Below, piece by piece: positions 15,474 to 30,968 of a stretch of DNA of 64,000 bases. The stretch lies in the IMG/VR virus record IMGVR_UViG_3300043469_000509; one strand, written 5' to 3'. Origin of the DNA: an uncultured virus (IMG/VR IMGVR_UViG_3300043469_000509). Taxonomy: Duplodnaviria; Heunggongvirae; Uroviricota; Caudoviricetes; Crassvirales. Below the pieces are notes generated by a model. It had not been told where the DNA came from and made no database searches. It saw nothing but the letters and a program-made list of their open reading frames with translations. Each line of letters begins with the position of its first letter. Positions within the stretch are counted from its first letter, which is position 1. Position numbers and translations under genes: made by a program.

Positions 15474-15479
15474 TTTTAG

Positions 15480-16070: not shown

Positions 16071-16610
16071 CACTAACCCCTAATTTTCATTAGGGAGTGG
16101 ACTATACCTTTGCATATTTTCCATTTATATCTCTAGTTTCATGATGTCTTTGATGACATTTTTTACATAATATTTCAAAATTAGAAATATCATTGTTAGT
16201 TCTATCATGATCTATATGATGTGCTACTAGATTTTCTATATTATTACACCTATTACAAATATTAGGGAGTAATTTCATAGCTTTTTTACAAGCTACTTTT
16301 GCAGAAGAATCTTTTATATCTTTTGTTTGATTATTACCTGAGCCTACCCCAGGTTTTTGTATAAATTTCTTATTAATTCTGTATTTTAAAGAATTAAAAG
16401 CATTTCTACATTTAATAGAACAAAATTTAGCACTTTTATATTTGGTTTGTGGTACTTCGTTACCACATTTAATACACACCCCACGTCTAGTCTCTACACA
16501 CGCCTTATTAGAACTGTCTAATATGCTTGGCTCGGTATTATCATCAGCATTACCTGTTAAGACTTCACCGACTTTGAAGGGTTTTGTTTCGGCAAACTTA
16601 GTTTTCATAT
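16071..16610 (-). mobile_element. group I self-splicing intron (540 nt) in polA
   Basis: 5' splice site follows UUCGGU, which pairs with intron GCCGAA (U-G wobble, P1). Core elements are AAAGUCGGUGAA, AAUACCGAGCCAAGC, GUAGAGACUAGAC and AAGGUAUAGUCC, with P7 GACUA/UAGUC. P9 hairpin is CUCCCUAAU-GAAA-AUUAGGGG and the terminal G is at 16071. Splicing restores in-frame INFG|KPYG. Confidence 0.93.
16102..16608 (-). CDS. intron-encoded HNH homing endonuclease
   Basis: CxxC...FCSIKC zinc finger and CNRC...HHIDHDRTNN...N..ILCKKCHQRHH HNH motif. Confidence 0.88.
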   Translation of the reverse strand: MKTKFAETKPFKVGEVLTGNADDNTEPSILDSSNKACVETRRGVCIKCGNEVPQTKYKSAKFCSIKCRNAFNSLKYRINKKFIQKPGVGSGNNQTKDIKDSSAKVACKKAMKLLPNICNRCNNIENLVAHHIDHDRTNNDISNFEILCKKCHQRHHETRDINGKYAKV

Positions 16611-17933: not shown

Positions 17934-17946
17934 TTATATTTATTAT

Positions 17947-18216
17947 TTAACCTATTTTTGATGTATAAATTGAATAATTTGATACTTCTATTTTATCTGA
18001 ATTATATTTACTTTTTAAAAGCTGTATATATTCTTCTTTATTATAATAAACATCTCCTTCTTTAAACTCATTTATTTTAAAATCATGTTCTACTATTTTA
18101 TAACCAGAATCTTTTAAATATATTTTAAATTTTGTACCGTCTGGTTTATTTGTTTTTAGATTTGCAGTTATTAATAAAACTAAAAATGCGATTATTATTG
18201 TACCTATTATTTCCAT
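17947..18216 (-). CDS. small hypothetical membrane-anchored protein
   Basis: N-terminal hydrophobic helix. Confidence 0.5.
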   Translation of the reverse strand: MEIIGTIIIAFLVLLITANLKTNKPDGTKFKIYLKDSGYKIVEHDFKINEFKEGDVYYNKEEYIQLLKSKYNSDKIEVSNYSIYTSKIG

Positions 18217-18279
18217 CTTCCTAAACTATTATTAATAATACCTCCATTCTCATCAAATGTATTTCTAAGTTTTTTTATT

Positions 18280-18534
18280 TTATTTATTATTTAAATACTC
18301 ATTATATAACCAATCAATAGGGTGATGATTTATATCATTATTAAAGCAAATCATACCTAATTCTTTAATTTTACTAGATATAGTATTAGGTGACCATTTT
18401 TTATATGTAGCTAATTTATTAAGAATTAACCAATATTCTAAACTATGTTGTATTTTTAGTTTTTTAGCTAAAAACATAACTCTACTTTGTTGATTACTTG
18501 TCATCTTCTTTTTTATCAGCCATTTTAGTTGCAA
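18280..18534 (-). CDS. hypothetical protein (true start may be the internal MTSNQ)
   Basis: ORF in operon context. Confidence 0.5.
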   Translation of the reverse strand: MQLKWLIKKKMTSNQQSRVMFLAKKLKIQHSLEYWLILNKLATYKKWSPNTISSKIKELGMICFNNDINHHPIDWLYNEYLNNK

Positions 18535-18772
18535 ACTCTTCTTGTGCTTTTTGCATCAATTGAGGTCTATAAGTATCATATAAAGCTTGTTTATCTGTTC
18601 TAGATAACTTTACCTTACCTTCATAAACATCTTTTGCTAGAGAGTCTAATTCTTCGTAAGGAAGCTTAGAATACTCTTCTTTTAATTTAAAATATCTATT
18701 AACTATCTTTGTTTGAGTAGAATTAGATTTAGCCTGCATTAAACTTCTATTATAGTTTCTTGCTTGACTCAT
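18494..18772 (-). CDS. hypothetical protein
   Basis: ORF in operon context. Confidence 0.6.
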   Translation of the reverse strand: MSQARNYNRSLMQAKSNSTQTKIVNRYFKLKEEYSKLPYEELDSLAKDVYEGKVKLSRTDKQALYDTYRPQLMQKAQEEFATKMADKKEDDK

Positions 18773-18774
18773 AA

Positions 18775-19056
18775 CTATTTATTATGAATATCTATTAAGT
18801 ACTCCATAATAGCGTCTTTACTTTCATTTTTAATTGCTTTATCTGTAGCATTATTATTAAAGTATTCTACTGTGTCTTCTCTTTTAAATGCAGCCCACAT
18901 ATTAGTATATGGATTTTTGTGCCACAAGTAATCTTGTAAAAAGTCTAAATTTATTGCTTTTCCCATATTTTTTCTTTTAATTAGTTTATCTTTAGCTACT
19001 CCTATAAATATAAGAATAGAAATTATTAATATTGCTGGTAATATATGACCTATCAT
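18775..19056 (-). CDS. hypothetical protein with N-terminal TM helix
   Basis: ORF coupled to upstream gene by ATGA overlap. Confidence 0.55.
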   Translation of the reverse strand: MIGHILPAILIISILIFIGVAKDKLIKRKNMGKAINLDFLQDYLWHKNPYTNMWAAFKREDTVEYFNNNATDKAIKNESKDAIMEYLIDIHNK

Positions 19057-19301
19057 GTGTGTAAATTAAAATATTCTAAACTTTCTTTAATTTTACCATC
19101 ATCTATCATAAGATATAAATCTGATAATATTTGTTGATTTTGTTTTATAGTTTTATCAGCAAAAGCATCAAAAACTCTATCTAAATTAGTAAATTGCAAC
19201 TCAGGTCTAAATTTAAATGTACTATAAAAATTCATAATACAAGCTAAACAAGATTGTCTAGTATAACAATTAGTTTTGATGTAATTTATTATGTGACTCA
19301 T
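19053..19301 (-). CDS. hypothetical protein
   Basis: ORF with ATGA coupling. Confidence 0.55.
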   Translation of the reverse strand: MSHIINYIKTNCYTRQSCLACIMNFYSTFKFRPELQFTNLDRVFDAFADKTIKQNQQILSDLYLMIDDGKIKESLEYFNLHT

Positions 19302-19546
19302 TTATGAATTTCTTTATAAATTTTTATTTTTCTATTTAATTCAATTTTAACTAATTCTTTAGCTTTAAGTACTTCTTCAGATGTGTAATTATAACTGAAT
19401 GTTTTACTTGCTAAAATTTTATTGTAATACCGACCATATACTACATTTCTTGAGAAATCAATTTCTATTCTTTTACCTATAGTATCTCTAAAAAACTTAT
19501 ACATTAGATAGGCTGTAATTATTACTGCTATAATTATTATTATCAT
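19298..19546 (-). CDS. hypothetical protein with N-terminal TM helix
   Basis: ORF in operon context. Confidence 0.55.
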   Translation of the reverse strand: MIIIIIAVIITAYLMYKFFRDTIGKRIEIDFSRNVVYGRYYNKILASKTFSYNYTSEEVLKAKELVKIELNRKIKIYKEIHK

Positions 19547-19554
19547 TTATATTA

Positions 19555-19809
19555 TTATAAAACATCATCTACATCATCTAAATATATACAAGGATTATCA
19601 AAGCTAATTACAGCTGCATAACTAAATGTATTTCCTTTATATTTTAAATTTATTTTTTCCATTAATTGCTCTAATTCTTCAAAAGATTTTAATTCTATTT
19701 CATAAAAGTTATATTCTTTATTAGTATCATTTAATGTAGCTCCTATAAATTCATAGAATGATTTTGTATCATTTTTATCTTCTCTGTTAAATCCTATTTC
19801 AAATATCAT
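19555..19809 (-). CDS. hypothetical protein
   Basis: ORF in operon context. Confidence 0.55.
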   Translation of the reverse strand: MIFEIGFNREDKNDTKSFYEFIGATLNDTNKEYNFYEIELKSFEELEQLMEKINLKYKGNTFSYAAVISFDNPCIYLDDVDDVL

Positions 19810-19810
19810 A

Positions 19811-20155
19811 TTATTTTTTATTTATAGCAATCCAGTCTTTTAACATCTTACTAGCAGAATCTTCCCAGTAAGTTTGAAAAGTATATTCAGCAAAATCAAT
19901 CATATCTTTTTTAGTAAATTTCTTATAATTAGTTAATTTCTCAACTACTTTAGGTTTTTTAACATCTCTATCTAAAGATATGTTTTTACAAAATCTAATT
20001 TCTTTATTGTTTAATGTCCAGATCTCTCCATTATCCATAGCACAAGTAAATAGTAAGTTATGCTCTTGGCTATAATCTATAACCAAAAAAGCATAACCTT
20101 CCATATTATCTGATACTCTAAATATAGGTATCATTGGGTTAAGTTGTGTAATCAT
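19811..20155 (-). CDS. hypothetical phage protein
   Basis: QLNP.IP...G.A..VIDY..EH.L...D.GEIW motif typical of small phage proteins. Confidence 0.6.
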   Translation of the reverse strand: MITQLNPMIPIFRVSDNMEGYAFLVIDYSQEHNLLFTCAMDNGEIWTLNNKEIRFCKNISLDRDVKKPKVVEKLTNYKKFTKKDMIDFAEYTFQTYWEDSASKMLKDWIAINKK

Positions 20156-21013
20156 TTAAAATATATATCTTATTGTATTCCAAGGGATTATGTCATTGTG
20201 TAAGTTAACCCATTCTTTAATATACTTAGATTTAATATTATGTTTGTACCTAATATTATCTCCACCATATTGAGATATTTTAGATTCTTGAATATCTGGA
20301 TTCCACAACAACTCTTCTCCTTGTAAATTGTTACTTAAATTGTAATAATGTTTATTCTCATTATGAGTAAGAAATATAACTTCACATTTAACTACATCTT
20401 TATAATTAACATAGTCATTAACCATGTGAAATAACTCTTCGTATTCTTGTAACCAATTATCATAAACAATTACAGGACTAAAGTTAATATGTACATCATA
20501 ACCTGCATCTATAAAAGCATCAATAGCTTTAATTCTATCTATTATAGGGCTAGTGTTTGGTTCTAGCTTATCTGAATAGATTTGAGGCATTAAACTAAAT
20601 CTAATCCTTATTTTACTTTCAGGATTAAATACAGTTAAATCAGGATTTACATATTTAGTAGCAAAACTACCCATTGCTATTGGATGCTCTCTAAAAAACT
20701 CAAATATTCTTTGCCAATCATGATATTTAGCATGCAGAGCAAAGTCTTCATTACAAGATATATCATAAGTAACATAATCAGCATGAGTTTGATTAGGTTT
20801 ATCTACTACACTAAAAAATGAATGATTATTAATTTCCGTTAAGATATCACCTGTATTTTTAGATATGTCTAATCCAACTGATTTATGTCTTTTCATATAA
20901 CAATAAGAACAGTTATATAAACAGCCATAACCAAAGCTAGGACTAATAAAATCTGTACTACGACCACTTGGCCGTATTAACATAGACTTTCTATTGATTT
21001 TCTTTATCACCAT
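20156..21013 (-). CDS. spore photoproduct lyase-like radical SAM protein
   Basis: GCLYNCSYCY radical SAM motif, FATK, RIRFSL, E..T..I.DRI.A, GY.VH.NFSP. Likely start is the ATG at 21013 (MVIKK) overlapping the thyX end; the ORF track start is 21052. Confidence 0.82.
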   Translation of the reverse strand: MVIKKINRKSMLIRPSGRSTDFISPSFGYGCLYNCSYCYMKRHKSVGLDISKNTGDILTEINNHSFFSVVDKPNQTHADYVTYDISCNEDFALHAKYHDWQRIFEFFREHPIAMGSFATKYVNPDLTVFNPESKIRIRFSLMPQIYSDKLEPNTSPIIDRIKAIDAFIDAGYDVHINFSPVIVYDNWLQEYEELFHMVNDYVNYKDVVKCEVIFLTHNENKHYYNLSNNLQGEELLWNPDIQESKISQYGGDNIRYKHNIKSKYIKEWVNLHNDIIPWNTIRYIF

Positions 21014-21686
21014 TAAATGCGTTAATAGTATGTTTAAATGGATTACCCTCAATGTTTTGAACTAACTCTAACATTTGTTGTGCAATTTCTCTAATCTCTA
21101 ATTGTGCATGCTCACTATTCCTAAGCTTTAGGAAGTTAGCAAAGCTACGCATATTAAACATTACATCAGCTTGTATTTGAGAGTTATAAGTCTTAAAGAA
21201 CCTAGCAGATTCTTTAGCTCTTTTTCTACCAAGAATAGGAGTTAAGTCTTCAAGACATTGATGATAAAGGTTATTACCTAATTCCGTATAATCATCTAAT
21301 ATAGTTGTCCAATCACACCATTTAGGTTCATAACAATTCCCATCATAATCAAAATATATTCGTTTAGATATTTTTTTACCTTTCCAATCATCAGGTAAAT
21401 AATACTTATCTTCCTTTAACTCTTTATACCTAGCTGATTCTGCATTAATAGAAGCTATTCTATGCTTTAATAGATGTATATGTGAAGCTATGTCACAGTT
21501 AATTAAGAAATGCACTGTAGCCTTCTCAAATGGTGTTTCATGACCATTCTTCCATAACATATCTATCAATGCTGGTATTCTAGTTTTTTTATCATCTGTT
21601 AATTCTCTAGATGTACTTGTCCATGCTGAACAAGCTATTACTTCATCACTACCATAATAACCTAATAGTTCTACTGTATTGTTCAT
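20991..21686 (-). CDS. thyX: flavin-dependent thymidylate synthase
   Basis: GHETPFE, KHRIASINAESARY (ThyX motif), ESAR, N.RS..NFLKLR..HAQLEIR. Confidence 0.92.
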   Translation of the reverse strand: MNNTVELLGYYGSDEVIACSAWTSTSRELTDDKKTRIPALIDMLWKNGHETPFEKATVHFLINCDIASHIHLLKHRIASINAESARYKELKEDKYYLPDDWKGKKISKRIYFDYDGNCYEPKWCDWTTILDDYTELGNNLYHQCLEDLTPILGRKRAKESARFFKTYNSQIQADVMFNMRSFANFLKLRNSEHAQLEIREIAQQMLELVQNIEGNPFKHTINAFNGDKENQ

Positions 21687-21687
21687 T

Positions 21688-21876
21688 TTAGTTTTGTTTT
21701 TCTAATTTAATAATTTCGTTTATAGGAACACAAAGTGTTATAGCACTAATCCAAAATACTACAAATGCAAATCTTACATTTTGAGCCCATTGTGATGGAT
21801 TACACTGCCACATTATAAATGAAAAGCAAAAATACACTAATAAAGTTGCAATTATAAATGGTGTTATTTTTTTCAT
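21688..21876 (-). CDS. small two-TM membrane protein
   Basis: Two hydrophobic helices. Confidence 0.55.
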   Translation of the reverse strand: MKKITPFIIATLLVYFCFSFIMWQCNPSQWAQNVRFAFVVFWISAITLCVPINEIIKLEKQN

Positions 21877-22130
21877 ATTGTTTCTTTATAAGTTTCGTTG
21901 TAGTATTGTTCTGCATTTGCTTTTTGATCTTCATCATTCCACCCATTATTAGAATAAGCATCTATTATCTGCTCCTTTTCCATTGCTAACAGTTCGGTGC
22001 TGATGTCATCATTAACACTAACTAATGCTTTTCGATACTCTACTTGAAAAGGGTTTGATGTAAATTCAAGTTTATCAATTATTTCTTGATTTCGATCAAA
22101 TAAAATCTGCATTGCTGTTTGTTTGCTCAT
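21873..22130 (-). CDS. small hypothetical phage protein
   Basis: KQTA...AMEKEQIIDAY...AEQYYNETY module. Confidence 0.6.
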   Translation of the reverse strand: MSKQTAMQILFDRNQEIIDKLEFTSNPFQVEYRKALVSVNDDISTELLAMEKEQIIDAYSNNGWNDEDQKANAEQYYNETYKETI

Positions 22131-22131
22131 A

Positions 22132-23025
22132 TTATTTCTTTTTAAATTGTTCCAACATTTTAATTGTAAAGTCTTTTATTCTTGTATATGGAATTTTAAC
22201 TTCATCATTTATAGTTCTTTGAATCAGCATACCTTTTTCACAAGAAAGTTTAATTATTTCTTTTACTTCTTCCTCACTATACATTCTTTCTTGTTGCCAT
22301 TTAGAAAATAAAATATGACTTTCTACAATTGCTTCTTTACTTGCATAAATGTCGGGATATGTTTTATCTCCACTAATTTGTTTAGAAAATCTATTGTTTA
22401 CAAATATTTCAGCAGCTTCTTCAAGTGTTTCTTTTTTATCAAATACAGAAGTTGGTAAAAAACCATTGACTAATTCAATTTCTTGTTTAGGTTCTAATGG
22501 TTTAAACTCTTCCACAGTTCCTCCATTTTTAAAGTGTTGAATAAAATGTGCTTTGCCTTCAATAGATTTTTTTAAACCTTCTTTTATTTTTGAATAGTCT
22601 TGTTTAGGTTCTTCTTGTGGAATGATGATTTTGTAACATTCTTGATAAGGGAAATCTTCTGTTTTATTGTATTCTTTATTCATAATAACAACCTCAACAA
22701 ACTCACAACTTGGATTCGTAACAAACCATTCTAAAAAATCATCGTCAATAGCTTGTACACCATCTAAATCTTGGTCTGTTGTTAGGATTATTTTTTTATA
22801 ATCACCTTTAGGTTCTTCACCTATGTGTTTATGTATTGGTCTATCTAATGAACCAAATTCTGCTATATAATAGTCACCTTCTTTAATTTCTTCCATATCA
22901 GAAGTGATGTAGATGTTTTGATAATCTTTAGGTGTGATTAATTGCCCCATTTCTAAGTGTAGATTACCTGCCAAATAAAATATCCTACTTGGTTTTTCTG
23001 TTGGTAATATGTGTATGTTTTTCAT
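22132..23025 (-). CDS. mosaic hypothetical protein
   Basis: Modules KIILTTDQDL, YKIIIPQEEPKQ, ETLEEAAE, WQQERMYSEEEV. Confidence 0.65.
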   Translation of the reverse strand: MKNIHILPTEKPSRIFYLAGNLHLEMGQLITPKDYQNIYITSDMEEIKEGDYYIAEFGSLDRPIHKHIGEEPKGDYKKIILTTDQDLDGVQAIDDDFLEWFVTNPSCEFVEVVIMNKEYNKTEDFPYQECYKIIIPQEEPKQDYSKIKEGLKKSIEGKAHFIQHFKNGGTVEEFKPLEPKQEIELVNGFLPTSVFDKKETLEEAAEIFVNNRFSKQISGDKTYPDIYASKEAIVESHILFSKWQQERMYSEEEVKEIIKLSCEKGMLIQRTINDEVKIPYTRIKDFTIKMLEQFKKK

Positions 23026-23404
23026 ATTATTTTATGTTTTCTAAATTCCGAACTGCACGCACATAGGATGCGTTGTCCTTACTGCTGTAGTAGGCATCCT
23101 CAGAGTTGAAAGAGAAGTACCACGCGAAGCCTTCGTTGCCGTACTCCGTACTACTCCAATAGCCTTTACTATTATTATTTATTAATTTATTTTTATAAAT
23201 CATAAAGAATTCTTCAATAGTTGGTAATCTCCAACCATTTCCTAATTTCTCAACTGCTTTAATAGCTTCATCCCAAGTCATTTTTCCTAAATCATCTGGG
23301 TGTAATTCAAAGTGATAATGTTTATTAACTATTTGAGATTGTTTAATTACAGGTGTATATTCTACACCGTCTATTATTATGTTTTTCATATTATTTTATG
23401 TTTT
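23014..23404. repeat. perfect 27-bp direct repeat (23014-23040 and 23378-23404) bracketing the DUF1566-like gene
   Basis: TATGTTTTTCATATTATTTTATGTTTT occurs at both positions; a 17-bp partial copy is near 23633-23649. Confidence 0.9.
23027..23389 (-). CDS. DUF1566/Lcl-like C-type-lectin-fold protein with DGR-type variable region
   Basis: MTWDEA...GWRLPTIEE...YWSSTE...AW...F......K....YVRAVR; the 3' third is GC-rich with NNC codons. Confidence 0.82.
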   Translation of the reverse strand: MKNIIIDGVEYTPVIKQSQIVNKHYHFELHPDDLGKMTWDEAIKAVEKLGNGWRLPTIEEFFMIYKNKLINNNSKGYWSSTEYGNEGFAWYFSFNSEDAYYSSKDNASYVRAVRNLENIK

Positions 23405-23639
23405 TTAATGGATAAGCGTTTAGTATTGATTTTTTATTTTCTTCAGTTGTACATACAAACCCATTAGAATCTCTAAAATATGCTTTTCTACTAGCAGCTT
23501 TTAATGCTTCTGTTACGTGTAGTTTAGCAAATTCTCTTAATGCTACAATATCTCTATATCTACAAGAACAACCTTCTGATTTAGAATGATCGTGACCGTT
23601 ATATTTTTTTAAGAACTCTTCAGCTGTTGGTATTTTCAT
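23391..23639 (-). CDS. small hypothetical protein, paralog of 23641..23859
   Basis: PTAEE...EFAKLHV...AYPL.NIK. Confidence 0.65.
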   Translation of the reverse strand: MKIPTAEEFLKKYNGHDHSKSEGCSCRYRDIVALREFAKLHVTEALKAASRKAYFRDSNGFVCTTEENKKSILNAYPLKNIK

Positions 23640-23640
23640 A

Positions 23641-23859
23641 TTATTTTATATTAGTTAGTGGATAAGCTTCATCATAACCTTCTTCAAGTTGTCCGTATTT
23701 ATCTATATAAATTTCTTGAGCTTTTTTACACGCTTCTACATGTAGTTTAGCAAATTCAATCATTAATTCAACTAAATGTTTAACATCATCAGAAAATAAA
23801 TCTAAATTAGGATTAATTTTTGTATCTTTATATAACTCTTCAGCGGTTGGTACATTCAT
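23641..23859 (-). CDS. small hypothetical protein, paralog of 23391..23639
   Basis: PTAEE...EFAKLHV...AYPL.NIK. Confidence 0.65.
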   Translation of the reverse strand: MNVPTAEELYKDTKINPNLDLFSDDVKHLVELMIEFAKLHVEACKKAQEIYIDKYGQLEEGYDEAYPLTNIK

Positions 23860-23860
23860 C

Positions 23861-24286
23861 TTATTTGTTTTTTACTATTTCTATAAGTTTAGATAAACAA
23901 GCTTGTTCTGCTTCTTCATAAGTGTTGTAATATTTTTCAAAGTAACCATCTTCTTTTTTACCAATAATAGTAATCCATTCTTCATCTATTGAATAAGTAA
24001 AACCATTGGGTATTAAATTTGTTGGTTCTCCATGAGTATAGTTCCATACATTATGATATAAGTTATACTTCTCTCTAAACCATCTAAATGCTTGTTGGTA
24101 AAGTGGTACACCTAACACACCATCTAATTTAAGTTCTGTATTAGTATAACCTCCTTTTATAATAGCAAATCCTCTTTGTGAAAATAATTGTAAACCGCAA
24201 ATAGTTTGCATAGCTAAACATATTTCATCAAAACCTAATTCTTTCAAAGCCAATGCTTGTTCGTAAGGTATAAATTCTTTATTCAT
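23861..24286 (-). CDS. hypothetical phage protein
   Basis: EFIPYEQALALKELGFDE...PLYQQAFRWFREKY...TYEEAE module. Confidence 0.65.
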   Translation of the reverse strand: MNKEFIPYEQALALKELGFDEICLAMQTICGLQLFSQRGFAIIKGGYTNTELKLDGVLGVPLYQQAFRWFREKYNLYHNVWNYTHGEPTNLIPNGFTYSIDEEWITIIGKKEDGYFEKYYNTYEEAEQACLSKLIEIVKNK

Positions 24287-24288
24287 TG

Positions 24289-24492
24289 TTATTTAAGTAT
24301 TTCGATTTTAGTTATAATAGTTTGTCTGATTGGATAATAAGCAACCACTACAGACCCTACATCTGCATTTTTGTTATAGAACTCATATAGTCCAGCTGAG
24401 CTGTAATTCATACCACTGCAATCAATAATTGTTTGATAAGTGGAGTCTGAGTCGTTATAGTATCCAAGTACTGTTATGTGATATCTTTTCAT
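24289..24492 (-). CDS. hypothetical protein
   Basis: ORF in operon context. Confidence 0.5.
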   Translation of the reverse strand: MKRYHITVLGYYNDSDSTYQTIIDCSGMNYSSAGLYEFYNKNADVGSVVVAYYPIRQTIITKIEILK

Positions 24493-24512
24493 ATTATTTG
24501 TTTTTTAGTTAG

Positions 24513-24599
24513 TGGTCAGGACAGGATTCGAACCTGTATGAATAAGCGTACCACGTTAGCAGTTATTCTCTTTAGCGTCTACCATTCCGCCACCTGACC
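24513..24599 (-). tRNA. tRNA-like gene with aberrant anticodon arm (identity undetermined; possibly pseudo-tRNA)
   Basis: Acceptor GGTCAGG/CCTGACC plus discriminator A; D arm GCG-GAATGGTAGA-CGC; T arm ACAGG-TTCGAAT-CCTGT. The middle is a GAATAA/TTATTC stem with a 17-nt loop. Confidence 0.7.
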
Positions 24600-24604
24600 A
24601 TATT

Positions 24605-24793
24605 TTAATTTGTTATTATATATACTTTATTATTACTAATAAAATAAAAGAAACTTTTATAGCTAGGTATATCACCTACTATTTTAAGCATTACCTTTGC
24701 TTCTAGGGTATTATCTTGTATTAACTGATGTATATTAGTACCTTGTAAAGTACTATTACTATACCACGTCATAGGCTCGTATTTACTAGTCAT
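24605..24793 (-). CDS. hypothetical protein
   Basis: 62 aa ORF. Confidence 0.4.
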   Translation of the reverse strand: MTSKYEPMTWYSNSTLQGTNIHQLIQDNTLEAKVMLKIVGDIPSYKSFFYFISNNKVYIITN

Positions 24794-24822
24794 ATTACCT
24801 CATATTAATTGCTATTAAATTT

Positions 24823-24866
24823 AAAAATAGTATAGGAGAGAAATTCCCAGAACTCTCCTAATACTA
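24823..24866 (-). terminator. putative intrinsic terminator
   Basis: TAGGAGAG...CTCTCCTA stem followed by TACTATTTTT on the minus strand, downstream of 24915..25547. Confidence 0.5.
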
Positions 24867-24914
24867 TTGATACTACTACTTGTTAATAGGTGTAATAGAC
24901 CCTTTAATCTTTAG

Positions 24915-25547
24915 TTATGCTAAAGCATCAACTTCAGCTTGTAACTTACTAATTACTTCAGCATTTTTAGCAGCAGCTTCAGCTTTAGTACTAACAGTTG
25001 CAGCTTTAGCTACTCTAATATCAATATCACCGAAGATATTAATACCAACTTCATTGCTACCTTTGTGGTTACTAAAGTCATTAACATAAAATCCTTGTGA
25101 GTATTGTACTGGTTGTACAATTTCTCCAGCTGAATTTCTAATAACTAAAGACTCTGCAAATTGAGCTGCAGTTCTTTGACCTGCTGATATTGAATACTTT
25201 TGCTCGTCTGTTAAGACATCAAGTAGTTTATTAGAATACTTTTTGCAAATACGTGCATTTGGTTTAGTACCTAATAGTTGTGCTACTTGTTCAGCTGTTG
25301 TACCTTCTGGTACATTAATCCAGCCTACTCGTGTTGATTCATATGATTCACCAAGTTCTAATTTGAAATCTTCGATTGCAAATAAACTATCTTGCATACT
25401 ATTATCTACTCTCTTACTAGGGTAAGTTGTTGTAACAGTTTGTCTGATTTGTGCTTGGTAAATACCTTCTTTGTACTCTGATGCTGTAACTTTATCTACT
25501 GATAATACTGCAAATTCTTTTGTGATTCCGTTTAATGATTGTTTCAT
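24915..25547 (-). CDS. hypothetical early protein
   Basis: 210 aa ORF with A-rich leader and downstream hairpin. Confidence 0.7.
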   Translation of the reverse strand: MKQSLNGITKEFAVLSVDKVTASEYKEGIYQAQIRQTVTTTYPSKRVDNSMQDSLFAIEDFKLELGESYESTRVGWINVPEGTTAEQVAQLLGTKPNARICKKYSNKLLDVLTDEQKYSISAGQRTAAQFAESLVIRNSAGEIVQPVQYSQGFYVNDFSNHKGSNEVGINIFGDIDIRVAKAATVSTKAEAAAKNAEVISKLQAEVDALA

Positions 25548-25629
25548 GTTTGTTTTGTTTTAAATTGTAATTAATTATTTATTTGTTTGTTTTAAGCTAG
25601 TATTTTAAATGTTCTCTCAACTTATGTGT

Positions 25630-26004
25630 CTAGCCATTATTTTTATGTTGGAGAATTTCTTGTACAGCTTGTATGTGTACTTTTCTAAACTTTGGAAATA
25701 TAGTAGCTAATAAACTATCAGCTAATTCATTTCTTTGGTTTATTTCAGTTTTAAGAGCTTGTATCCATTCATTAGCTGAATGACCATTAAATCTTAATTC
25801 TGAAGGTTTTAGGCTACTTAAAATAGATCTTAAATGGTTAAATTCAAGATTCTTTAGTTTAACAGAGCCATATTTATTCATCCATAACCAATCAGATGAT
25901 TGATTATACTTTCTACCAATACCTTTAACTATAGTATTAGAGTTTAACTTCTCAATCCTCTCTCTCGGAGTTTGAGTCTTCTGCAATAAAATTGTTGAGT
26001 TCAT
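25630..26004 (-). CDS. hypothetical protein
   Basis: 124 aa ORF. Confidence 0.55.
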   Translation of the reverse strand: MNSTILLQKTQTPRERIEKLNSNTIVKGIGRKYNQSSDWLWMNKYGSVKLKNLEFNHLRSILSSLKPSELRFNGHSANEWIQALKTEINQRNELADSLLATIFPKFRKVHIQAVQEILQHKNNG

Positions 26005-26224
26005 TTTGTTTTAAATTTTCTATATTAATAAATTCTCTTTCTTTAATTCCTCTATTAATCTTGTCTATTTCATAAGACCTTGTTTTTTGTATTTTTATGT
26101 TACCTGTTGTAACACCTATAGGTAAGTATAGAACTTTATCTACACTTACACCTTGTTGTTTTAACTCCTCCCACGTATTACATTTCTTTGTGAGAGGAGT
26201 ATCAATATCTTTAGGCGCTTTCAT
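25952..26224 (-). CDS. hypothetical protein
   Basis: 90 aa ORF coupled to upstream stop. Confidence 0.55.
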   Translation of the reverse strand: MKAPKDIDTPLTKKCNTWEELKQQGVSVDKVLYLPIGVTTGNIKIQKTRSYEIDKINRGIKEREFINIENLKQNELNNFIAEDSNSERED

Positions 26225-26478
26225 TAAGCAGCTTGTTTATGTAGCTTCTTAACTTTCTTTAGTTCTACTCTTTCAGCATCTGTTAGTTTTTCTCTAACAA
26301 TTACTCTTCTAACAGGAGGCCTTAAATCTTTGGCTACCATTTCAAAGTCATTAGAGCAATCTACAGCATCTGCTTGTAGATATTTATCACGCTCTTCTCT
26401 GATAAGTTTTTTAGGCATATCACTGTTTCTAGAAGCTAAATCATTAACTTTAGAAAGATTTTTGTTTTTTAAGTTCAT
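26224..26478 (-). CDS. basic hypothetical protein
   Basis: 84 aa ORF. Confidence 0.55.
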   Translation of the reverse strand: MNLKNKNLSKVNDLASRNSDMPKKLIREERDKYLQADAVDCSNDFEMVAKDLRPPVRRVIVREKLTDAERVELKKVKKLHKQAA

Positions 26479-26532
26479 TTTATTTGTTTTTTAGGGGTTA
26501 ATAACCATTCTAAGTATTCTTCTTCACTTATA

Positions 26533-26757
26533 TTATCTACCATCTTCTATTATATTATAAGTTTTATAAGCTATTCTTTTGTTCTTATAAGTAATTTTAT
26601 ACGTATAAGATTTAACTTTGTAAGTTGTAATTGATTCACAATAAGCTACATTATACTCTTTTTCTGATATTAATTGATTGCTTTCAATAATAAAATAATC
26701 TTTAGTATATTGCAATATGCAAATAATAATTAGTAAACTGATTAGTGCTATAGCCAT
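26533..26757 (-). CDS. small protein with N-terminal TM helix
   Basis: ORF in operon context. Confidence 0.45.
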   Translation of the reverse strand: MAIALISLLIIICILQYTKDYFIIESNQLISEKEYNVAYCESITTYKVKSYTYKITYKNKRIAYKTYNIIEDGR

Positions 26758-26951
26758 TGTATAAATTGATTTAGTGATTGAATAATTGATCTTGTGCTTA
26801 ATAATATTACTATAATACTTAGAAAAATACTGATTTTATTTATTACAATTATATCATAATCATAAAATGGATCACATTTTTTAATATTATTAATAAGTTC
26901 AGGTAATTCATAACATACCCAAATTAGAATAAGTATATCTATAAGTATCAT
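26748..26951 (-). CDS. small membrane protein
   Basis: Two hydrophobic segments. Confidence 0.45.
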   Translation of the reverse strand: MILIDILILIWVCYELPELINNIKKCDPFYDYDIIVINKISIFLSIIVILLSTRSIIQSLNQFIQWL

Positions 26952-27133
26952 TGGTTTTCTTTAGCTTTATAGATTATTACTGGAGTCTTAACATTAGGTA
27001 ATGGATATTTAATCCATAAGACTTTTAATTGAGCTACAAGAGCTTTATTCTCTAATGTAATAGTATCTCTATAACTAGCTGTACTATCACAATTACTGGT
27101 GAATAACGAGGTAATTAATAATAATTTAATCAT
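26948..27133 (-). CDS. small hypothetical protein, possibly secreted or lipoprotein
   Basis: Signal-like N-terminus followed by Cys. Confidence 0.45.
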   Translation of the reverse strand: MIKLLLITSLFTSNCDSTASYRDTITLENKALVAQLKVLWIKYPLPNVKTPVIIYKAKENQ

Positions 27134-27232
27134 TTGTTTGTTTTTTAGTGAATAATTAGTTTAAAATATAAGCATCATCTCAACTCCGCTAGTTGTTAAG
27201 GGACTCAATACCCAAAGATGATGCCTTTTAAT

Positions 27233-27412
27233 TTAAGATATTACTATTAAATCTAGTTTAATTGCAATAGCTCTAAATAACATTGTCATTTCTAATAATA
27301 ATCCTAATAATAGAAGTACAAAAGAATGTCTGTCTTCATCGTAATATGCATAAAAAGCAGCATATGTTGTTGCTACTATTAAAGCTACTAGTATCAATAT
27401 TATTACTACCAT
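27233..27412 (-). CDS. small membrane protein (59 aa, not in ORF track)
   Basis: MVVIILILVALIVATTYAAFYAYYDEDRHSFVLLLLGLLLE...; the ATG overlaps the end of the upstream gene. Confidence 0.45.
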   Translation of the reverse strand: MVVIILILVALIVATTYAAFYAYYDEDRHSFVLLLLGLLLEMTMLFRAIAIKLDLIVIS

Positions 27413-27618
27413 AAGATATCTTGTAAATGTTTTTCATAATATTCATGTAAAGAAGCTATAACTAACCACCAATGTACTACAATAAAATATGTTACAAACC
27501 AATTTGAATTACTTATTATACTCTTATAATCAGTAAAGAATAAGCCAAATGCTGATAGTGCTAGATAATAAGCAGCAGTCAGTATAAGATAGAGAAAAAT
27601 GTAAATTATTACTTTCAT
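27406..27618 (-). CDS. small two-TM membrane protein
   Basis: Hydrophobic ORF preceded by ACAAATTCCT. Confidence 0.55.
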   Translation of the reverse strand: MKVIIYIFLYLILTAAYYLALSAFGLFFTDYKSIISNSNWFVTYFIVVHWWLVIASLHEYYEKHLQDILW

Positions 27619-27653
27619 AGGAATTTGTTTTTAATTGTTTTTGTTTATAATTT

Positions 27654-27884
27654 TTAGTAAGTATTTATTTCAGTAGCATCGCATTCATCATATTCATCAG
27701 AATGGTAATTATTATTAAAATCATTGGCCATATCACCATTGAGTTTAAATTCAGTTCTCTTTTTATGTTTGTTACTATTGTTCACAATCATTTTAAGAGT
27801 ATTACGAAGGTGATTAATATCCATATCATCTATAGATATTAATACACCATTACGTTGTTTCCAGTAAACTATTTTATTGCTCAT
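27654..27884 (-). CDS. hypothetical phage protein
   Basis: W..RNG..I.IDDM...HL.N.LKM motif. Confidence 0.65.
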   Translation of the reverse strand: MSNKIVYWKQRNGVLISIDDMDINHLRNTLKMIVNNSNKHKKRTEFKLNGDMANDFNNNYHSDEYDECDATEINTY

Positions 27885-28089
27885 TTGATTGATCTTCTAA
27901 AATAAGTTTTTGTGTAACTAAATCTTCTTCCATTTGTTCATCAGTATATTTAGGGTATCGAGACAATAATTCTTTAGTGGCTCCTTCAATAGTAGTATGC
28001 CAATTTGTTTTAGCATGTACTAACCCTGTAAAAGATTCTTCTGTTTGGTATCTATAAATATTCATTTTGTGTGTGTAATTAATTAACAT
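27874..28089 (-). CDS. hypothetical protein
   Basis: ORF in operon context. Confidence 0.5.
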   Translation of the reverse strand: MLINYTHKMNIYRYQTEESFTGLVHAKTNWHTTIEGATKELLSRYPKYTDEQMEEDLVTQKLILEDQSNEQ

Positions 28090-28601
28090 TCATTAAATTG
28101 ATTTTCTAAATCATTAAGCTTACATTCGTTTTGTAAATCTTCATAATATTGCACCATTAAAGTAGAATGAGAATTACAAAGAATTTTACAATCATCTAAA
28201 TTATATGGATAAACTAATTTATCAAAATCTTCTAAATAATAAACTGTTCCACCACTAAGTACAGTATTTACATTTGGGTTATTTGTAAATAAATTAGCAA
28301 ATCCATTATCTTCACAATATTCATTTGCACAATCTAAAGCATTTTTTAGATTATTATATGAAATACAACTATGTGAACCATAACTATGAATTACAACTTT
28401 ATAGATATAACTATCAGGTATTATATCTCCAATGTGTAATTTAATTTGCTCTTTTTCCCAATTATTTAAAGGTAAAGATAAATCTAATTCAACACTTATT
28501 ACTGATTTTGTTGTTTCATTATAGGCTGAAACAAATACTCGATTATCTATAAATAGATAAGAATTGCCATTTGGATGTTGTACTATCATTTTGTTTTGCA
28601 T
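28083..28601 (-). CDS. hypothetical protein
   Basis: 172 aa ORF. Confidence 0.6.
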   Translation of the reverse strand: MQNKMIVQHPNGNSYLFIDNRVFVSAYNETTKSVISVELDLSLPLNNWEKEQIKLHIGDIIPDSYIYKVVIHSYGSHSCISYNNLKNALDCANEYCEDNGFANLFTNNPNVNTVLSGGTVYYLEDFDKLVYPYNLDDCKILCNSHSTLMVQYYEDLQNECKLNDLENQFNEC

Positions 28602-28649
28602 ATTCTTACAACTTGCCAGTTGCTTTTTAAATTGTTAGTAAATAAATGT

Positions 28650-29190
28650 TTTTATCATTCTTGTTAGGTTTCTTACAGCCTCTACACCCTTTCGAAGGTA
28701 GCTAAGTGGATTTAATGTATTATTCCAAGGTTCACTCTAATGATTTGTCTGGTTTAATGTAAGTCTTACATCAATTGTTGCCTATAACCAGATAAAATAG
28801 GGCTTTTTGTAATTTTGTGTTTTCATAAAGCAGTCTTAATTTATTACACGCAAGCTACTAGCGTGAGCAATAAGAACCTTCTAGTAAAGAATACAGTTGT
28901 CTAATCTGTCATATTACCCGTTAGTGATAACTAGAATTTAATTTTACACCTAAAACTTTACTGTCATACAAGTTCCCAAATTTTTTTCAGTTTGGTCTGT
29001 ATTGTATTAATGCCATTAGTCAGTAAAGAATTAGGCGCTTAATAATTAAAATTGAGCATTGCAACCTTCGGATTAGCTAATGGGTTTCAGTGCATTATAC
29101 TACATATTGACCCTCTTATAGGTTGTTATCAGTGTAGTCAAGTCTTGCTCAAATTTAATAATAAACTCCCAACTGTTAAGTCAGGAGTTT
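28650..29190 (-). ncRNA. candidate structured non-coding region (series of hairpins)
   Basis: About 590 bp without an ORF of 60 aa or more. Stems include AAACTCCTGAC/GTTGGGAGTTT, GCGCCTAA..CTTTACTG/CAGTAAAG..TTAGGTGT, TTATTGC..CACGC/GCGTGTAATAA and TCTGGTT/AACCAGA. G-U pairs mostly favour the minus strand. Confidence 0.5.
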
Positions 29191-29195
29191 AAGGT

Positions 29196-29624
29196 TTACA
29201 AAGAGAAGTGTGAAGCACTAATCCATTTTGTTGTTCTATCAAATTCTCCTTTTCTATTAGGAACTTGATATTCAACAAGAACTTCTTCATCTCTATACTG
29301 ATTAGTTTCTAATACAGTAACTTCATTAACATTACCATGGCAAGAATTATTGTCTTCAATTGATTTAGGAGTCCAATAACCATAAACACTAAAAGGTTTA
29401 ACTTTATAAGTTTCACCAGCATTAACATTTATTTCTTTTTGAAAACCATTCATTGCAGACACAATTTTACCTAGCATTGTTTTATCATGAGACATACTTC
29501 TACCAATAATTTGTTCTACAACAGTATCAGCATTAGCTGAATCTTCTTTAAACATAGAACGTAATTGTGAGGCAACAGCATCAACTTCAATTGTAATTTG
29601 GATTTGTTCGTTAAATTTCTTCAT
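29196..29624 (-). CDS. hypothetical early protein
   Basis: 142 aa ORF preceded by ACAAATTCCTA. Confidence 0.7.
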   Translation of the reverse strand: MKKFNEQIQITIEVDAVASQLRSMFKEDSANADTVVEQIIGRSMSHDKTMLGKIVSAMNGFQKEINVNAGETYKVKPFSVYGYWTPKSIEDNNSCHGNVNEVTVLETNQYRDEEVLVEYQVPNRKGEFDRTTKWISASHFSL

Positions 29625-29639
29625 TAGGAATTTGTATTG

Positions 29640-29968
29640 TGCTTTTACTAAACTATCTTATGATAGAACCTAGAAGCAATTGGTTTATTGAGGACTTGCA
29701 ATCTTTGGCAGATTACTTTCTAGCTTGAATTTGGGCTAGACTTACGCAGTTAGATAAGAAACTGTATTCACACACTTTACCAGATGTGTTAAAAGAAACT
29801 TGCAGTTCCTACAGTTAATCGAATTCTATATCATAGATATATTATTCCATAGTTCAGTATTCCACTACTGAGCAAGTACCAATGGGATGGAATTTGTATC
29901 CATTGAGATAATAGTTTTAAACAAGCTTTTTAGCTTTAAACTACAACTAGTTCTCACACTAATTGTTA
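29640..29968 (-). ncRNA. candidate hairpin-array leader RNA downstream of the ribozyme
   Basis: About eight consecutive hairpins, e.g. ACAATTAGT/ACTAGTTGT, TCAGTA/TACTGA, TCTAGC/GCTAGA, CTATC/GATAG. Confidence 0.5.
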
Positions 29969-29972
29969 AAGT

Positions 29973-30125
29973 TCCTGATTTTTAAGTCTGCACTAACTCA
30001 AGATTACACTCTTCTAAAGTGTTAGATATTATGCTTATTCCAATTAGGATTAGAGATTAGAAGTCTCTGCATAAAATCTTGTAGTAGCCCCACAGGATTA
30101 TCAAGGTTTATCAACCTTAAAGAAA
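29973..30125 (-). ncRNA. hatchet self-cleaving ribozyme
   Basis: P1 UUAAGGUU/AACCUUGA, linker UAA, P2 UCCUG/CAGGA, conserved UGGGGCU, P4 CAAGAUU/AAUCUUG, conserved UAGUGCAGAC and UUAAAAAU. Order and spacing match the hatchet consensus as I recall it (UGGGGCU...UAGUGCAGACGUUAAAAC). Confidence 0.85.
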
Positions 30126-30177
30126 CATAGTAGGACAGAGCTCACGAAGAGATGTCCTTTAAACTATGCACAACATT

Positions 30178-30390
30178 TTAGAATATGCTAGGAATAGCAA
30201 TCCATTGTAAAGTATTCTGTCTATATTGTTTATCAACAATAACATATTGTATTGTATCACCTCTTAATAACTTGTTAAAGTTTTTAGTAGTAATAAAATA
30301 CGTTTCGTGTTTGTTGTTAAAAGAGAAACATACAGAAGCTTTGTTAATACTAATCAATTTGATTTGAGTGATAGATAATGTGTTAAGCAT
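30178..30390 (-). CDS. hypothetical early protein
   Basis: 70 aa ORF preceded by ACAAATTCCT. Confidence 0.55.
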   Translation of the reverse strand: MLNTLSITQIKLISINKASVCFSFNNKHETYFITTKNFNKLLRGDTIQYVIVDKQYRQNTLQWIAIPSIF

Positions 30391-30477
30391 AGGAATTTGT
30401 ATTTGTTTGTTTATAAATTGTTAATAATAAGCTATTTAATTAGATGAGAACAAAAAAGGAGACACTTGTAGATAGAC

Positions 30478-30499
30478 AAAAAGGGGTGGTGAGCCCCTT
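30478..30499 (-). terminator. putative intrinsic terminator
   Basis: AAGGGG-CTCACCA-CCCCTT plus T run on the minus strand, just after the stop of 30504..30797. Confidence 0.6.
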
Positions 30500-30503
30500 A
30501 TTA

Positions 30504-30797
30504 CTACCTAACAGTTGCAATTTCCCACTTGCCTGTAGGGTTTTCAGCTGTTATTAAGGTTGCTTTAGCCCCTGATATGATAAGTATCAGTCCTTGTAAT
30601 GCCGCAGGATTTGCACCTTGCCCTAAATAAATGCGAGTATTTGGTAACTGAAAGTACCAACGCTTTTTATCATCTTGTATCATAGCCCCTAGTAAAGGCA
30701 ATGCAATACTACCAAAAAGCTCTTCTTTAATGTTACTAACAATACCCCTAGTTTGTAATGCTTGCTGTAATTGTTCTAATGTTGCAAAATTTGTCAT
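30504..30797 (-). CDS. first gene of the leftward arm, hypothetical
   Basis: 97 aa ORF followed by a terminator. Confidence 0.6.
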   Translation of the reverse strand: MTNFATLEQLQQALQTRGIVSNIKEELFGSIALPLLGAMIQDDKKRWYFQLPNTRIYLGQGANPAALQGLILIISGAKATLITAENPTGKWEIATVR

Positions 30798-30968
30798 TGT
30801 AATTTAGTTTAATATTATATAGCCTACTCTTTAGTGCGGGGTAGGTTTGCCGCAATATATCAGGTGGGTGTGCTTAGCTAGAGGAGCTACTCGTTCACAT
30901 ACCCTCACTAAATTTTTCTAAAAAATTTTAAAAATTTTATTTTTTTATATGATTTAACATTATTTGGC

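Follow-up and report, generated by a model that had tools for sequence, protein, structure and literature searches.

For CsrA and RsmA, a short word at translation starts is shown again in the hairpin loops of the decoy RNAs CsrB and RsmZ. In cluster K mycobacteriophages, start-associated sequences abut the start codons of some genes, and T4-like phages carry promoter-early stem-loops, repeated boundary sequences at the exchange points of gene cassettes. Structured RNAs associated with ribozymes were reportedly described by Weinberg et al. in 2015, and we know of no biological role for Hatchet ribozymes. According to the parts of PMC3014915 used here, the T4 translational repressor RegA and the endoribonuclease RegB target short sequences within many early-mRNA start regions, and the RNA ends left by RegB are 5'-OH and cyclic phosphate, like those of a Hatchet cut. 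The crAss-like phage phi14:2 makes long early non-coding RNAs that are abundant early transcripts, as given in the sections of the preprint used here (bioRxiv 10.1101/2020.03.07.982082).

The DNA analysed was a 64 kb window (the whole stretch) of a lake crAss-like phage of Bacteroidota type, for which the initial annotation had proposed a CsrA/CsrB-like circuit: a word before early start codons would be displayed again in two loops of an RNA released by a Hatchet ribozyme. Comparisons were made with the nearest relative of this phage (G001, 37.9 kb examined) and with relatives bearing the RNA (the G002–G004 lineage and L245; 95.9, 17.4, 16.8 and 3.5 kb examined). G002–G004 belong to a crAss-like lineage far from the window phage, sharing 56% identity with it in the terminase and 39% in the major capsid protein. 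Absences in relatives are no proof, because every relative's record is incomplete (CheckV 17–59%). A blastn search with 27300–30600 against GenBank phages gave no match, and further joints in the early region were visible in DNA runs.

The Hatchet ribozyme and the RNA behind it

The following features lie in the RNA module.

30132..30158, minus strand: P0-type hairpin AGGACA...UGUCCU just 5' of the Hatchet, read from the sequence
29973..30124, minus strand: Hatchet self-cleaving ribozyme (RF02678, E 8.5e-15, model positions 1-133 of 133)
29688..29972, minus strand: conserved structured RNA directly 3' of the Hatchet, with no Rfam family
29879..29906, minus strand: hairpin 1, 7-bp stem and 14-nt loop AUACAAAUUCCAUC
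29854..29871, minus strand: next hairpin, UCAGUA-GUGGAA-UACUGA (RNAalifold pairs 125-130/137-142, invariant)
29719..29740, minus strand: hairpin 2, 6-bp stem and loop CCAAAUUCAA, with the shape conserved and the loop not

The Hatchet proved genuine, scoring 79.6 bits where the gathering score is 51, with the conserved core present (CCUGUGGGGC and GUGCAGAC..AAAAUCAGG) and a covarying P1 (AAGG/CCUU in the window, AGAG/CUCU in L171 and L245). P0 occurs in about 90% of Hatchets according to the part of PMC4604424 consulted, and the same source, together with the RF02678 model alignment, places the predicted cut after C30122, aligned to the consensus C at -1. A link between Hatchets and tRNAs was dropped, a tRNA being nearby at only 5 of 118 Hatchet loci. 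Among 4227 Rfam covariance models, only Hatchet scored above threshold; the remaining hits gave E values of at least 0.21 and fell well short of their gathering scores.

The structured RNA was matched by an nhmmer profile over 29672-29991, and ribozyme and RNA together were 78% identical over 454 nt to L168/L171/L201, with conserved blocks nearly identical. RNAalifold gave 79 pairs for the structured RNA, 5 of them with both sides changed. In G002–G004 the Hatchet and the ~300-nt RNA form the syntenic head of the leftward arm, and a fourth variant of the RNA was found in a metatranscriptome contig. A 362-nt RNA-library contig covers 30103..29760; evidence from RNA libraries consists of contigs, which cannot show RNA ends. 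In RNA-library run X24, most ORF parts of the stretch had no cover; these gaps are uninformative on expression of the window phage, because the X24 phage belongs to another lineage. A second anchor from the RNA returned nothing new in IMG/VR and nothing in GTDB genomes, and nhmmer with a three-sequence profile found no further homologue among all collected loci. One match from the metagenome scan (L246) was rejected as chance, with no alignment beyond the 20-mer. On comparative sequence grounds, the Hatchet and its ~300-nt RNA are a conserved module and an uncatalogued phage RNA, and constitute the solid novelty of the locus. This RNA is almost unchanged between phages with core proteins only 35–56% identical, and the module, which heads an early operon and is covered by RNA-library contigs, offers a concrete system in which to examine the product released by a phage ribozyme.

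Both hairpins to which loop copies of the word had been assigned were recovered. Copy 1 (ACAAAUUCC, 29897-29889) lies inside the loop of hairpin 1, which was the minimum-energy fold in three lineages, each folded alone (the window and two others). Pair 29902-29883 is U-A, C-G or G-C, pair 29901-29884 is G-C or A-U, and a DNA-run variant has U-A in place of the closing U.G. This covariation was read directly, MAFFT placing the extra base of L245 in the stem and fixed columns being unable to hold both registers. Within the loop, only the core AAAUUCCA is invariant across all four variants, an RNA-run contig carrying ACAAAAAUUCC. When the window was folded in a 348-nt context, a competing 5-bp stem paired the UCC of the loop word. 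GUGGAAU, in the loop next to hairpin 1, is complementary to AUUCCAU of loop 1, with a predicted duplex energy of -7.8 kcal/mol, and a kissing contact between the two loops is possible.

Copy 2 (CCAAAUUCAA, 29734-29725) is the loop of hairpin 2, which is stable (z -3.4; 0 of 200 shuffles as good). Its place is taken in relatives by AUAAGG-GGGAUAAAAACGAA-CCUUAU, and the loop word was missing from both other lineages spanning that part of the RNA, so that the window genome has two loop copies and the relatives one.

The start-site word and its genes

The word and the genes that follow it are arranged as listed here.

30388..30411, minus strand: leader cassette AACAAACAAATACAAATTCCT with the ATG of ORF70
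30178..30390, minus strand: ORF70, small early protein, the first gene after a terminator at 30481-30499
29626..29635, minus strand: motif copy before ORF142, one extra A to the ATG
29196..29624, minus strand: ORF142, three N-terminal helices and a small SH3/Tudor/KOW-like barrel (AF2 model)
29164..29189, minus strand: terminator-like hairpin AACUCC...GGGAGUU, then UAUUAUU, after ORF142, read from the sequence
27619..27628, minus strand: motif copy of ORF 27406..27618, within the 35-nt gap that follows ORF 27654..27884
27406..27618, minus strand: ORF for a hydrophobic 70-aa protein, motif copy directly upstream

As first reported, the motif precedes three early ATGs, with ACAAATTCCT at minus-strand positions 30391-30400, 29626-29635 and 27619-27628; it directly abuts the ATG of ORFs 30178..30390 and 27406..27618, and one extra A intervenes before ORF 29196..29624. 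A genome-wide count against expectation had been named as a check. The exact word was in excess (3 copies in 64 kb against 0.37 expected; 3 reached in 1 of 100 shuffles) and the word with one mismatch allowed was at background (8 found, 9.62 expected). The 7-mer CAAATTC occurred 21 times against 12.95 expected (21 reached in 3 of 100 shuffles), and five of its nine minus-strand copies fall in 27621-30399.

The word is the 3' end of an untranslated, A/C-rich leader of ~24 nt (AACAAACAAAUACAAAUUCCU). An identical 24-nt leader stands before ORF70 in the window and before both ORF70 and ORF142 in G001, where the 24-nt cassette of the ORF142 homologue lacks the extra A; the copy before ORF 27406..27618 is likewise identical in G001. 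Searches of IMG/VR with the 18-mer of the leader returned G001 and one intragenic match (L122), rejected as chance because it lies inside an ORF with otherwise no similarity. The start-site word is confined to the window phage and G001: it was not found before the ORF70 homologue of L263 (77% identical), which has a different leader, and among ORF142-family loci it was present in one of nine (G001) and missing from the 8 further homologues.

Nearly all genes of the window phage have an A-rich leader and no Shine-Dalgarno sequence, and 20 of 85 genes have ACAAA in the 25 nt upstream. Half of the start-site word is generic, and UUCCU sets the three genes apart; only seven genes have no more than one A between -6 and -1, and the three word-bearing genes are among them. 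The word ACAAAUUCCU contains no GGA, and the three genes lack a Shine-Dalgarno sequence. As an observation in its own right, the leader word is an example of start regions moving with gene cassettes in the mosaic phage genomes of non-Shine-Dalgarno hosts.

ORF70 has four homologues at 76–93% identity, no family in PHROGs or Pfam, and an AF2 model (pLDDT 70) with no Foldseek match at E of 0.001 or better. ORF142 has 26 homologues and a model of higher confidence (pLDDT 86.7), again with no Foldseek match at that cutoff; its best fold matches by VIA-align (Z 5–6.5, residues 61–142) were generic small barrels, which indicate no function. The early ORFs matched nothing in PHROGs or Pfam. Searches of 73 proteins against PHROGs and of 23 early and neighbouring proteins against Pfam turned up no RNA-binding family, CsrA-like and RegA-like ones included, and fold searches with the ORF70 and ORF142 models gave no clear match to a known RNA binder. 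ORF142 is a mobile cassette, at 2702-3121 in G001 against 29196..29624 in the window, and this movement between sites was counted, like the further joints in DNA runs, in favour of the leader as a copied cassette. The hairpin after ORF142 is kept in G001; it had been left unflagged by the scan because its loop exceeds the allowed length. No ribozyme-linked RNA was found at any of the nine ORF142-family loci, nor a Hatchet at the eight other than G001.

Loop and leader: independent elements or a shared reader

Loop 1 has 11 nt (ATACAAATTCC) in common with the two leaders on either side of the RNA module. Three copies of this 11-mer are present against 0.07 expected, none of 100 shuffles gave three, and 42 of 5000 permutations of the loop came equally close to a leader; the identity is unusual and unlikely by chance, though it was noticed post hoc. 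In relatives, leaders and RNA come apart. G001 has all three leaders; a Hatchet was absent from its first 12 kb and the loop copy from its 37.9 kb, and the ribozyme and RNA were not found at the syntenic place. G002–G004 and L245 keep the RNA and its loop, with no such leader in the sequence examined; ACAAATTCC occurs in the G002–G004 records in the loop only, and in G003 all 15 ORFs that follow the RNA lack the word. CAAAUUC stands in a second loop only in the window genome, which alone has both leaders and RNA. The conservation that the initial annotation had proposed to examine in relatives thus held for the loop core of hairpin 1 and failed for the loop word of hairpin 2 and for the start-site word, and the comparison speaks mostly against the decoy reading.

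The reading that we favour, at a probability of roughly 0.55, is that two independent elements, leader and ribozyme RNA, happen to share an A/C-rich word. The leader would be a variant of the usual A-rich leader of this phage, copied among small early-gene cassettes during recombination shuffling, and would act as a translation start region made atypical by its pyrimidine 3' end. Since the leaders are identical over 24 nt, copying is suggested rather than selection on a site of 7–10 nt. The Hatchet and structured RNA would head the leftward early operon as a conserved module, and self-cleavage after C30122 of a presumed common transcript would separate the ORF70 message from a 5'-OH RNA that runs from the ribozyme through the structured RNA and ORF142 to the hairpin at 29164-29189. 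Hairpin 1 would belong to the RNA's own architecture, AAAUUCCA being kept for a role within the module, such as contact with the neighbouring GUGGAAU loop or with a partner of the RNA itself, and not for mimicry of the leaders. The module was taken as independent of the leaders because in G002–G004 it is syntenic, with near-identical blocks and covarying stems, and has the word only in the loop. Several observations fit this reading less well: the 11-nt identity with flanking leaders, the second-loop copy in the sole genome with leaders and RNA, the unusual context before the three AUGs, which would suit special regulation, the incompleteness of all relatives, and the candidate kissing contact, both sides of which are invariant and hence give it no covariation.

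Some of the same observations would be explained if a shared reader, a phage or host RNA-binding protein or nuclease, recognised AAAUUCC in hairpin 1 and in the three leaders, with the ribozyme-matured RNA as competitor, which is possible though unlikely. The window/G001 lineage would then have put the word on three start regions, whose genes would be repressed or cut. The excess of ATACAAATTCC and the permutation result argue for such a reader, as do the invariant loop core on a covarying stem, the second-loop CAAAUUC found only where leaders also occur, the UUCCU context with the common sequence overlapping the start regions of the three early mRNAs 0–1 nt before the AUG, and the precedent of RegA and RegB at early mRNA start regions in the parts of PMC3014915 used here. 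Against it stand relatives with the RNA and no leaders, or leaders and no RNA, the 24-nt identity of the leaders, the single conserved site, and the empty searches for an RNA-binding family in the 73 and 23 proteins scanned and for a clear RNA-binder match to the ORF70 and ORF142 models. The CsrA/CsrB-like proposal is favoured by the ribozyme, both hairpins, the conservation of hairpin 1 and the 11 nt common to loop and flanking leaders, and is weakened by the separation of leaders and RNA in relatives and by the lack of a CsrA-like protein among those scanned. The repressor-and-decoy circuit is unproven but possible, and keeps a small share of probability because the relatives are incomplete and the reader could be host-encoded. 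In the form of a RegA/Csr-like circuit run by a phage of a host lacking Shine-Dalgarno sequences, with an AAAUUCC reader at three starts and the Hatchet-freed RNA as a competitor timing early translation, it is doubtful. If loop and leaders did share a reader, the RNA would be the first ribozyme-matured competitor RNA, and the finding would open a way into translational control in phages of Bacteroidota.

It is improbable that the start-site word is instead a DNA signal for promoter or initiation, read for example by an injected virion RNA polymerase, with nearly leaderless early mRNAs and unrelated loop copies. The fixed distance between word and ATG (0–1 nt, with a longer conserved stretch upstream) would then reflect the transcription start, and in the sections of the phi14:2 preprint used here early transcripts have no common upstream motif and crAss-like early promoters are undefined (bioRxiv 10.1101/2020.03.07.982082). 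However, an operon-like gene row holds two of the three copies in its short gaps, and a sigma-70-type scan was empty at the leaders and gave 31 hits overall against 27.4 expected; a sigma-70-type promoter at the leaders was dropped, the scan being at background. RNA–RNA control, in which the GUGGAAU loop (29865-29859) would pair with AUUCC of the three leaders and block initiation while hairpin 1 served as an internal competitor, is very improbable: GGAAU, the complement of AUUCC, does occur twice in the RNA (29863 and 29848), but pairing is limited to 5–7 bp, a longer complement (GGRRUUUG) is absent from the transcribed strand nearby, and the three genes rank 8, 38 and 39 of 51 minus-strand start regions by duplex prediction. 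An antisense partner was likewise dropped, none being found by complement search nearby or by duplex prediction over the 51 minus-strand start regions.

Comparison with known systems

The locus resembles Csr/Rsm systems in that a start-site word is displayed also in a hairpin loop of a non-coding RNA. It differs in that the word has no GGA, no CsrA-family protein was found in the PHROGs and Pfam scans, the host belongs to a type that lacks Shine-Dalgarno sequences, and RNA and supposed targets do not co-occur in relatives; Csr/Rsm sponges offer many sites, whereas the window RNA has two, of which one is conserved. With T4 RegA and RegB it has in common a short sequence shared by start regions of early mRNAs, but no homologue of either was detected in the window phage by PHROGs and Pfam searches, and, unlike the action of RegB, the predicted cut would be made by a ribozyme at a single site away from the motif. 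We know of no decoy RNA for RegA or RegB. Cluster K mycobacteriophages and T4-like phages are similar in having a conserved short sequence at starts or cassette boundaries, and differ from the window leader in hosts and sequences.

In layout, the window is like phi14:2, also a crAss-like phage, as far as the sections of the preprint used here describe it, in that the early region opens with one small gene between two long intergenic regions; the likeness is one of layout, expression here being suggested by contigs of one RNA library. The ribozyme is a regular member of the Hatchet class RF02678 as described in the part of PMC4604424 consulted (Li et al. 2015), showing P0, a covarying P1 and the conserved core. 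Other ribozyme-linked motifs likewise have a conserved RNA; the one here differs in matching no Rfam family and in being much better conserved than the ribozyme's own variable stem.

Exact copies of the leader word and their genomic setting

The word ACAAATTCCT was recovered in exact form before the start codons of the three early genes named by the initial annotation, with one additional base at the second:

30391-30400, minus strand: exact ACAAATTCCT, with the ATG of ORF 30178..30390 (ORF70) directly after
29626-29635, minus strand: exact ACAAATTCCT, one extra A, then the ATG of ORF 29196..29624 (ORF142)
27619-27628, minus strand: exact ACAAATTCCT, with the ATG of ORF 27406..27618 directly after

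Counted over the window, the exact word exceeded expectation (3 copies vs 0.37; 3 reached in 1 of 100 shuffles), whereas with one mismatch permitted it stayed at background (8 vs 9.62). A longer cassette, AACAAACAAATACAAATTCCTATG, terminates in the word and is identical upstream of ORF70 and of the ORF70 and ORF142 homologues of G001, the nearest relative. Its first half is generic, ACAAA lying upstream of 20 of 85 genes; UUCCU distinguishes the three genes, which are among only seven with at most one A at positions -6 to -1.

The AT-rich sequence (G+C ~30%) is organized in two divergent arms, with small unassigned ORFs and then replication genes on the minus strand (1..30800), and virion genes, among them those for terminase, portal and major capsid protein, on the plus strand from 31367. 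The capsid protein was at most 32.5% identical to those of crAss-like phages of Bacteroides, Flavobacterium and Cellulophaga, and below 60% in every one of 144 records compared. Window genes have no Shine-Dalgarno sequence and follow A-rich upstream regions (52% A over -25 to -1, 85 ORFs), which fits a host of Bacteroidota type; public sequencing runs containing the stretch are lake-water metagenomes. Within the replication arm, DNA polymerase is encoded by two ORFs (16605-17933 and 15480-16058, minus; region 15480-17933) interrupted by an HNH endonuclease ORF (16102-16608), and amidoligase, COOH-NH2 ligase, glutamine amidotransferase and RimK-like (S6 glutaminyl transferase) genes cluster at 6579-14247 (minus). 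Rfam called a tRNA at 24513-24599 (minus; 42.3 bits, 87 nt, with a 25-nt insertion in the region of the anticodon arm), whereas ARAGORN found zero tRNAs in the window; either a tRNA-like RNA or a tRNA with an intron may lie here.

Distribution of the word among relatives

In G001 (37.9 kb; virion proteins mostly 94-100% identical), the word precedes the same three genes within a mosaic early region, in which ORF142 stands at another place, ORF172 is missing and an additional ORF lies before ORF70. No Hatchet ribozyme was found in its first 12 kb, and no loop copy of the word across the entire 37.9 kb. The ORF70 homologue of L263/G005 (77% identical) has another leader and no Hatchet. Among nine ORF142-family loci in IMG/VR, only that of G001 carries the word; the other eight encode proteins 28-56% identical, have A-rich but different leaders, and lack Hatchet, and the RNA that follows the ribozyme in the window is absent from all nine. 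A search of IMG/VR with the 18-mer leader returned nothing beyond the window and G001 except one match, rejected as chance because it is situated inside a gene. From this distribution in G001, L263, the ORF142 family and IMG/VR, the start-site word is judged to be young, confined to one lineage and propagated by copying.

Immediately after ORF70, G001 (~5300-5320, minus) and L263 (~2220-2240, plus), both without Hatchet, retain only a hairpin, AGGUUGGUAAACCU, closely similar to P1 of the window's ribozyme, AAGGUUGAUAAACCUU, and possibly left over from a ribozyme module since lost. ORF172 (28083-28601, minus) varies in presence, being missing from G001, and contigs from DNA runs join across its region (27901/28587, 28061/28586, 28141/28587; another 27874/28090). 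Beyond ORF142, a second long stretch without genes (28602-29195, minus) has 28586-28828 retained in G001, is covered at 28704-28865 and 29043-29152 by contigs of the RNA-library run X24, had no Rfam match, and may hold a second conserved RNA. At 28602-28641 (minus), an element of ~40-60 nt (TTACTAACAATTTAAAAAGCAACTGGCAAGTTGTAAGAAT plus a small hairpin, CAACU-GGCA-AGUUG) is common to the window, G001 and L263, directly upstream of a different ORF in each; it possibly marks a cassette boundary as a promoter or regulatory leader.

The Hatchet ribozyme and the RNA behind it

30158-30132, minus strand: P0-type hairpin, 5' of Hatchet
29973-30124, minus strand: Hatchet ribozyme, full-length (Rfam)
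29906-29879, minus strand: hairpin 1, 7-bp stem, loop AUACAAAUUCCAUC
29740-29719, minus strand: hairpin 2, stable by itself (z -3.4)
29189-29164, minus strand: terminator-like hairpin downstream of ORF142, read from sequence

The ribozyme claimed initially is an ordinary Hatchet (79.6 bits; gathering score 51), for which P0 and a C at -1 are described in passages of PMC4604424; the cut is predicted from alignment after C30122. Since a terminator scan flagged none between ribozyme and ORF142, and a terminator-like hairpin follows ORF142, the released RNA probably runs into that gene. A Hatchet-core scan gave at least 118 loci (L123-L240). In 48 distinct full-flank loci among the matches listed, the median distance from the preceding ORF to the ribozyme is 78 nt, and the median non-coding stretch from the ribozyme to the next ORF of at least 50 aa is 251 nt, so that many Hatchets may have a non-coding tail. 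Many host contigs of the listed loci measure 95-100 kb, the crAss-like genome range.

Three of the listed matches (L168, L171 and L201), mutually identical in the aligned part, align to 30125..29688 with 78% identity over 454 nt; a 20-mer anchor from the RNA recovered the same contigs plus L245 from JGI metagenomes, and an X24 metatranscriptome contig (362 nt, depth 22.1), spanning 30103..29760, supplied a fourth variant. The comparison uses three full sequences and one partial, with contigs as the RNA-level evidence. The three matches lie in G002-G004, which form a crAss-like lineage far from the window (identity 55.6% for terminase, 35.2% for portal, 39.1% for capsid), and there too the module opens the leftward arm. 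The ribozyme's variable stem is far less conserved than the RNA behind it, which matched no Rfam family and for which RNAalifold gave 79 pairs, both sides changed in 5.

Both loop-bearing hairpins fold as initially proposed; the loop core is conserved only in hairpin 1. Its structure is well supported by covariation (29902-29883 as U-A, C-G or G-C; 29901-29884 as G-C or A-U; closing U.G replaced by U-A in one DNA-run variant), with a rival 5-bp stem pairing part of the word in a 348-nt context fold. Its loop is AUACAAAUUCCA in three lineages, and with two bases changed in the X24 variant the invariant core is only AAAUUCCA. Hairpin 2 keeps position and shape in relatives, but there its stem sequence is entirely different and its loop is GGGAUAAAAACGAA. 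Predicted pairing of loop 1 with the next hairpin's loop (AUUCCAU with GUGGAAU, -7.8 kcal/mol) would explain loop conservation inside the RNA.

Readings of the shared word and known systems

Leader word and ribozyme-linked RNA are best read as independent elements sharing a word (probability roughly 0.55). The expected joint conservation of start-site copies and RNA failed in relatives: ACAAATTCC is confined to the loop in G002 (95.9 kb), G003 (17.4 kb), G004 (16.8 kb) and L245 (3.5 kb), the 15 ORFs that follow the RNA in G003 all have different leaders, and G001 is the opposite case, with leaders and no RNA found. All these records are incomplete (17-59% by CheckV), so absence in them is not proof, although the G001 syntenic place and 6.3 kb downstream of the RNA in G003 are covered.

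A shared reader binding the word, with the RNA as competitor, would account for ATACAAATTCC occurring three times (loop 1 and the two module-flanking leaders; 0.07 expected), but those leaders are mutual copies and count as one event. With the 14-nt loop permuted, a common substring of at least 11 with any of 85 leaders arose in 42 of 5000 trials, roughly 1 in 100 by chance for a match singled out post hoc. By a rough estimate, chance alone would give some other loop of the RNA a 7-nt match to loop 1 in ~9% of cases, and the hairpin 2 copy is therefore weak evidence. No RNA-binding family was found among 73 proteins compared with PHROGs or 23 with Pfam. ORF142 (26 homologues; AF2 pLDDT 86.7) is modelled as three helices plus a small SH3/Tudor/KOW-like barrel, and its fold matches are no better than middling (Z 5-6.5); the ORF70 model (pLDDT 70) had none. 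Such a reader is unlikely.

The position of the word would also suit a promoter signal, which is improbable given a sigma-70-type scan at background level. The region's two best sigma-70-like matches (TTAACA-17-TATAAT and TTGACA-16-TATATT with TG; 30954-30996, plus) lie in the divergent gap, pointing toward the structural arm. Antisense pairing of the RNA with the leaders can be given hardly any weight: no long complement of the word occurs on the transcribed strand nearby, and in duplex predictions the three genes rank 8, 38 and 39 of 51.

Four tested features that define Csr systems are lacking in the proposed circuit, and likeness to T4 RegA and RegB, as described in passages of PMC3014915, is limited to a word common to early start regions. 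Literature on Hatchet in phages and self-cleaving noncoding RNAs, including passages of PMC5737381 and PMC6765202, yielded neither a Hatchet-tied RNA nor a ribozyme-made sponge, and that on crAss-like non-coding RNA, ribozymes and intergenic regions nothing relevant. The nearest described situation, in passages of bioRxiv 10.1101/2020.03.07.982082, is that of phage phi14:2, whose early promoters have no motif and in which two long intergenic regions of the early genome part yield abundant RNAs without assigned function.
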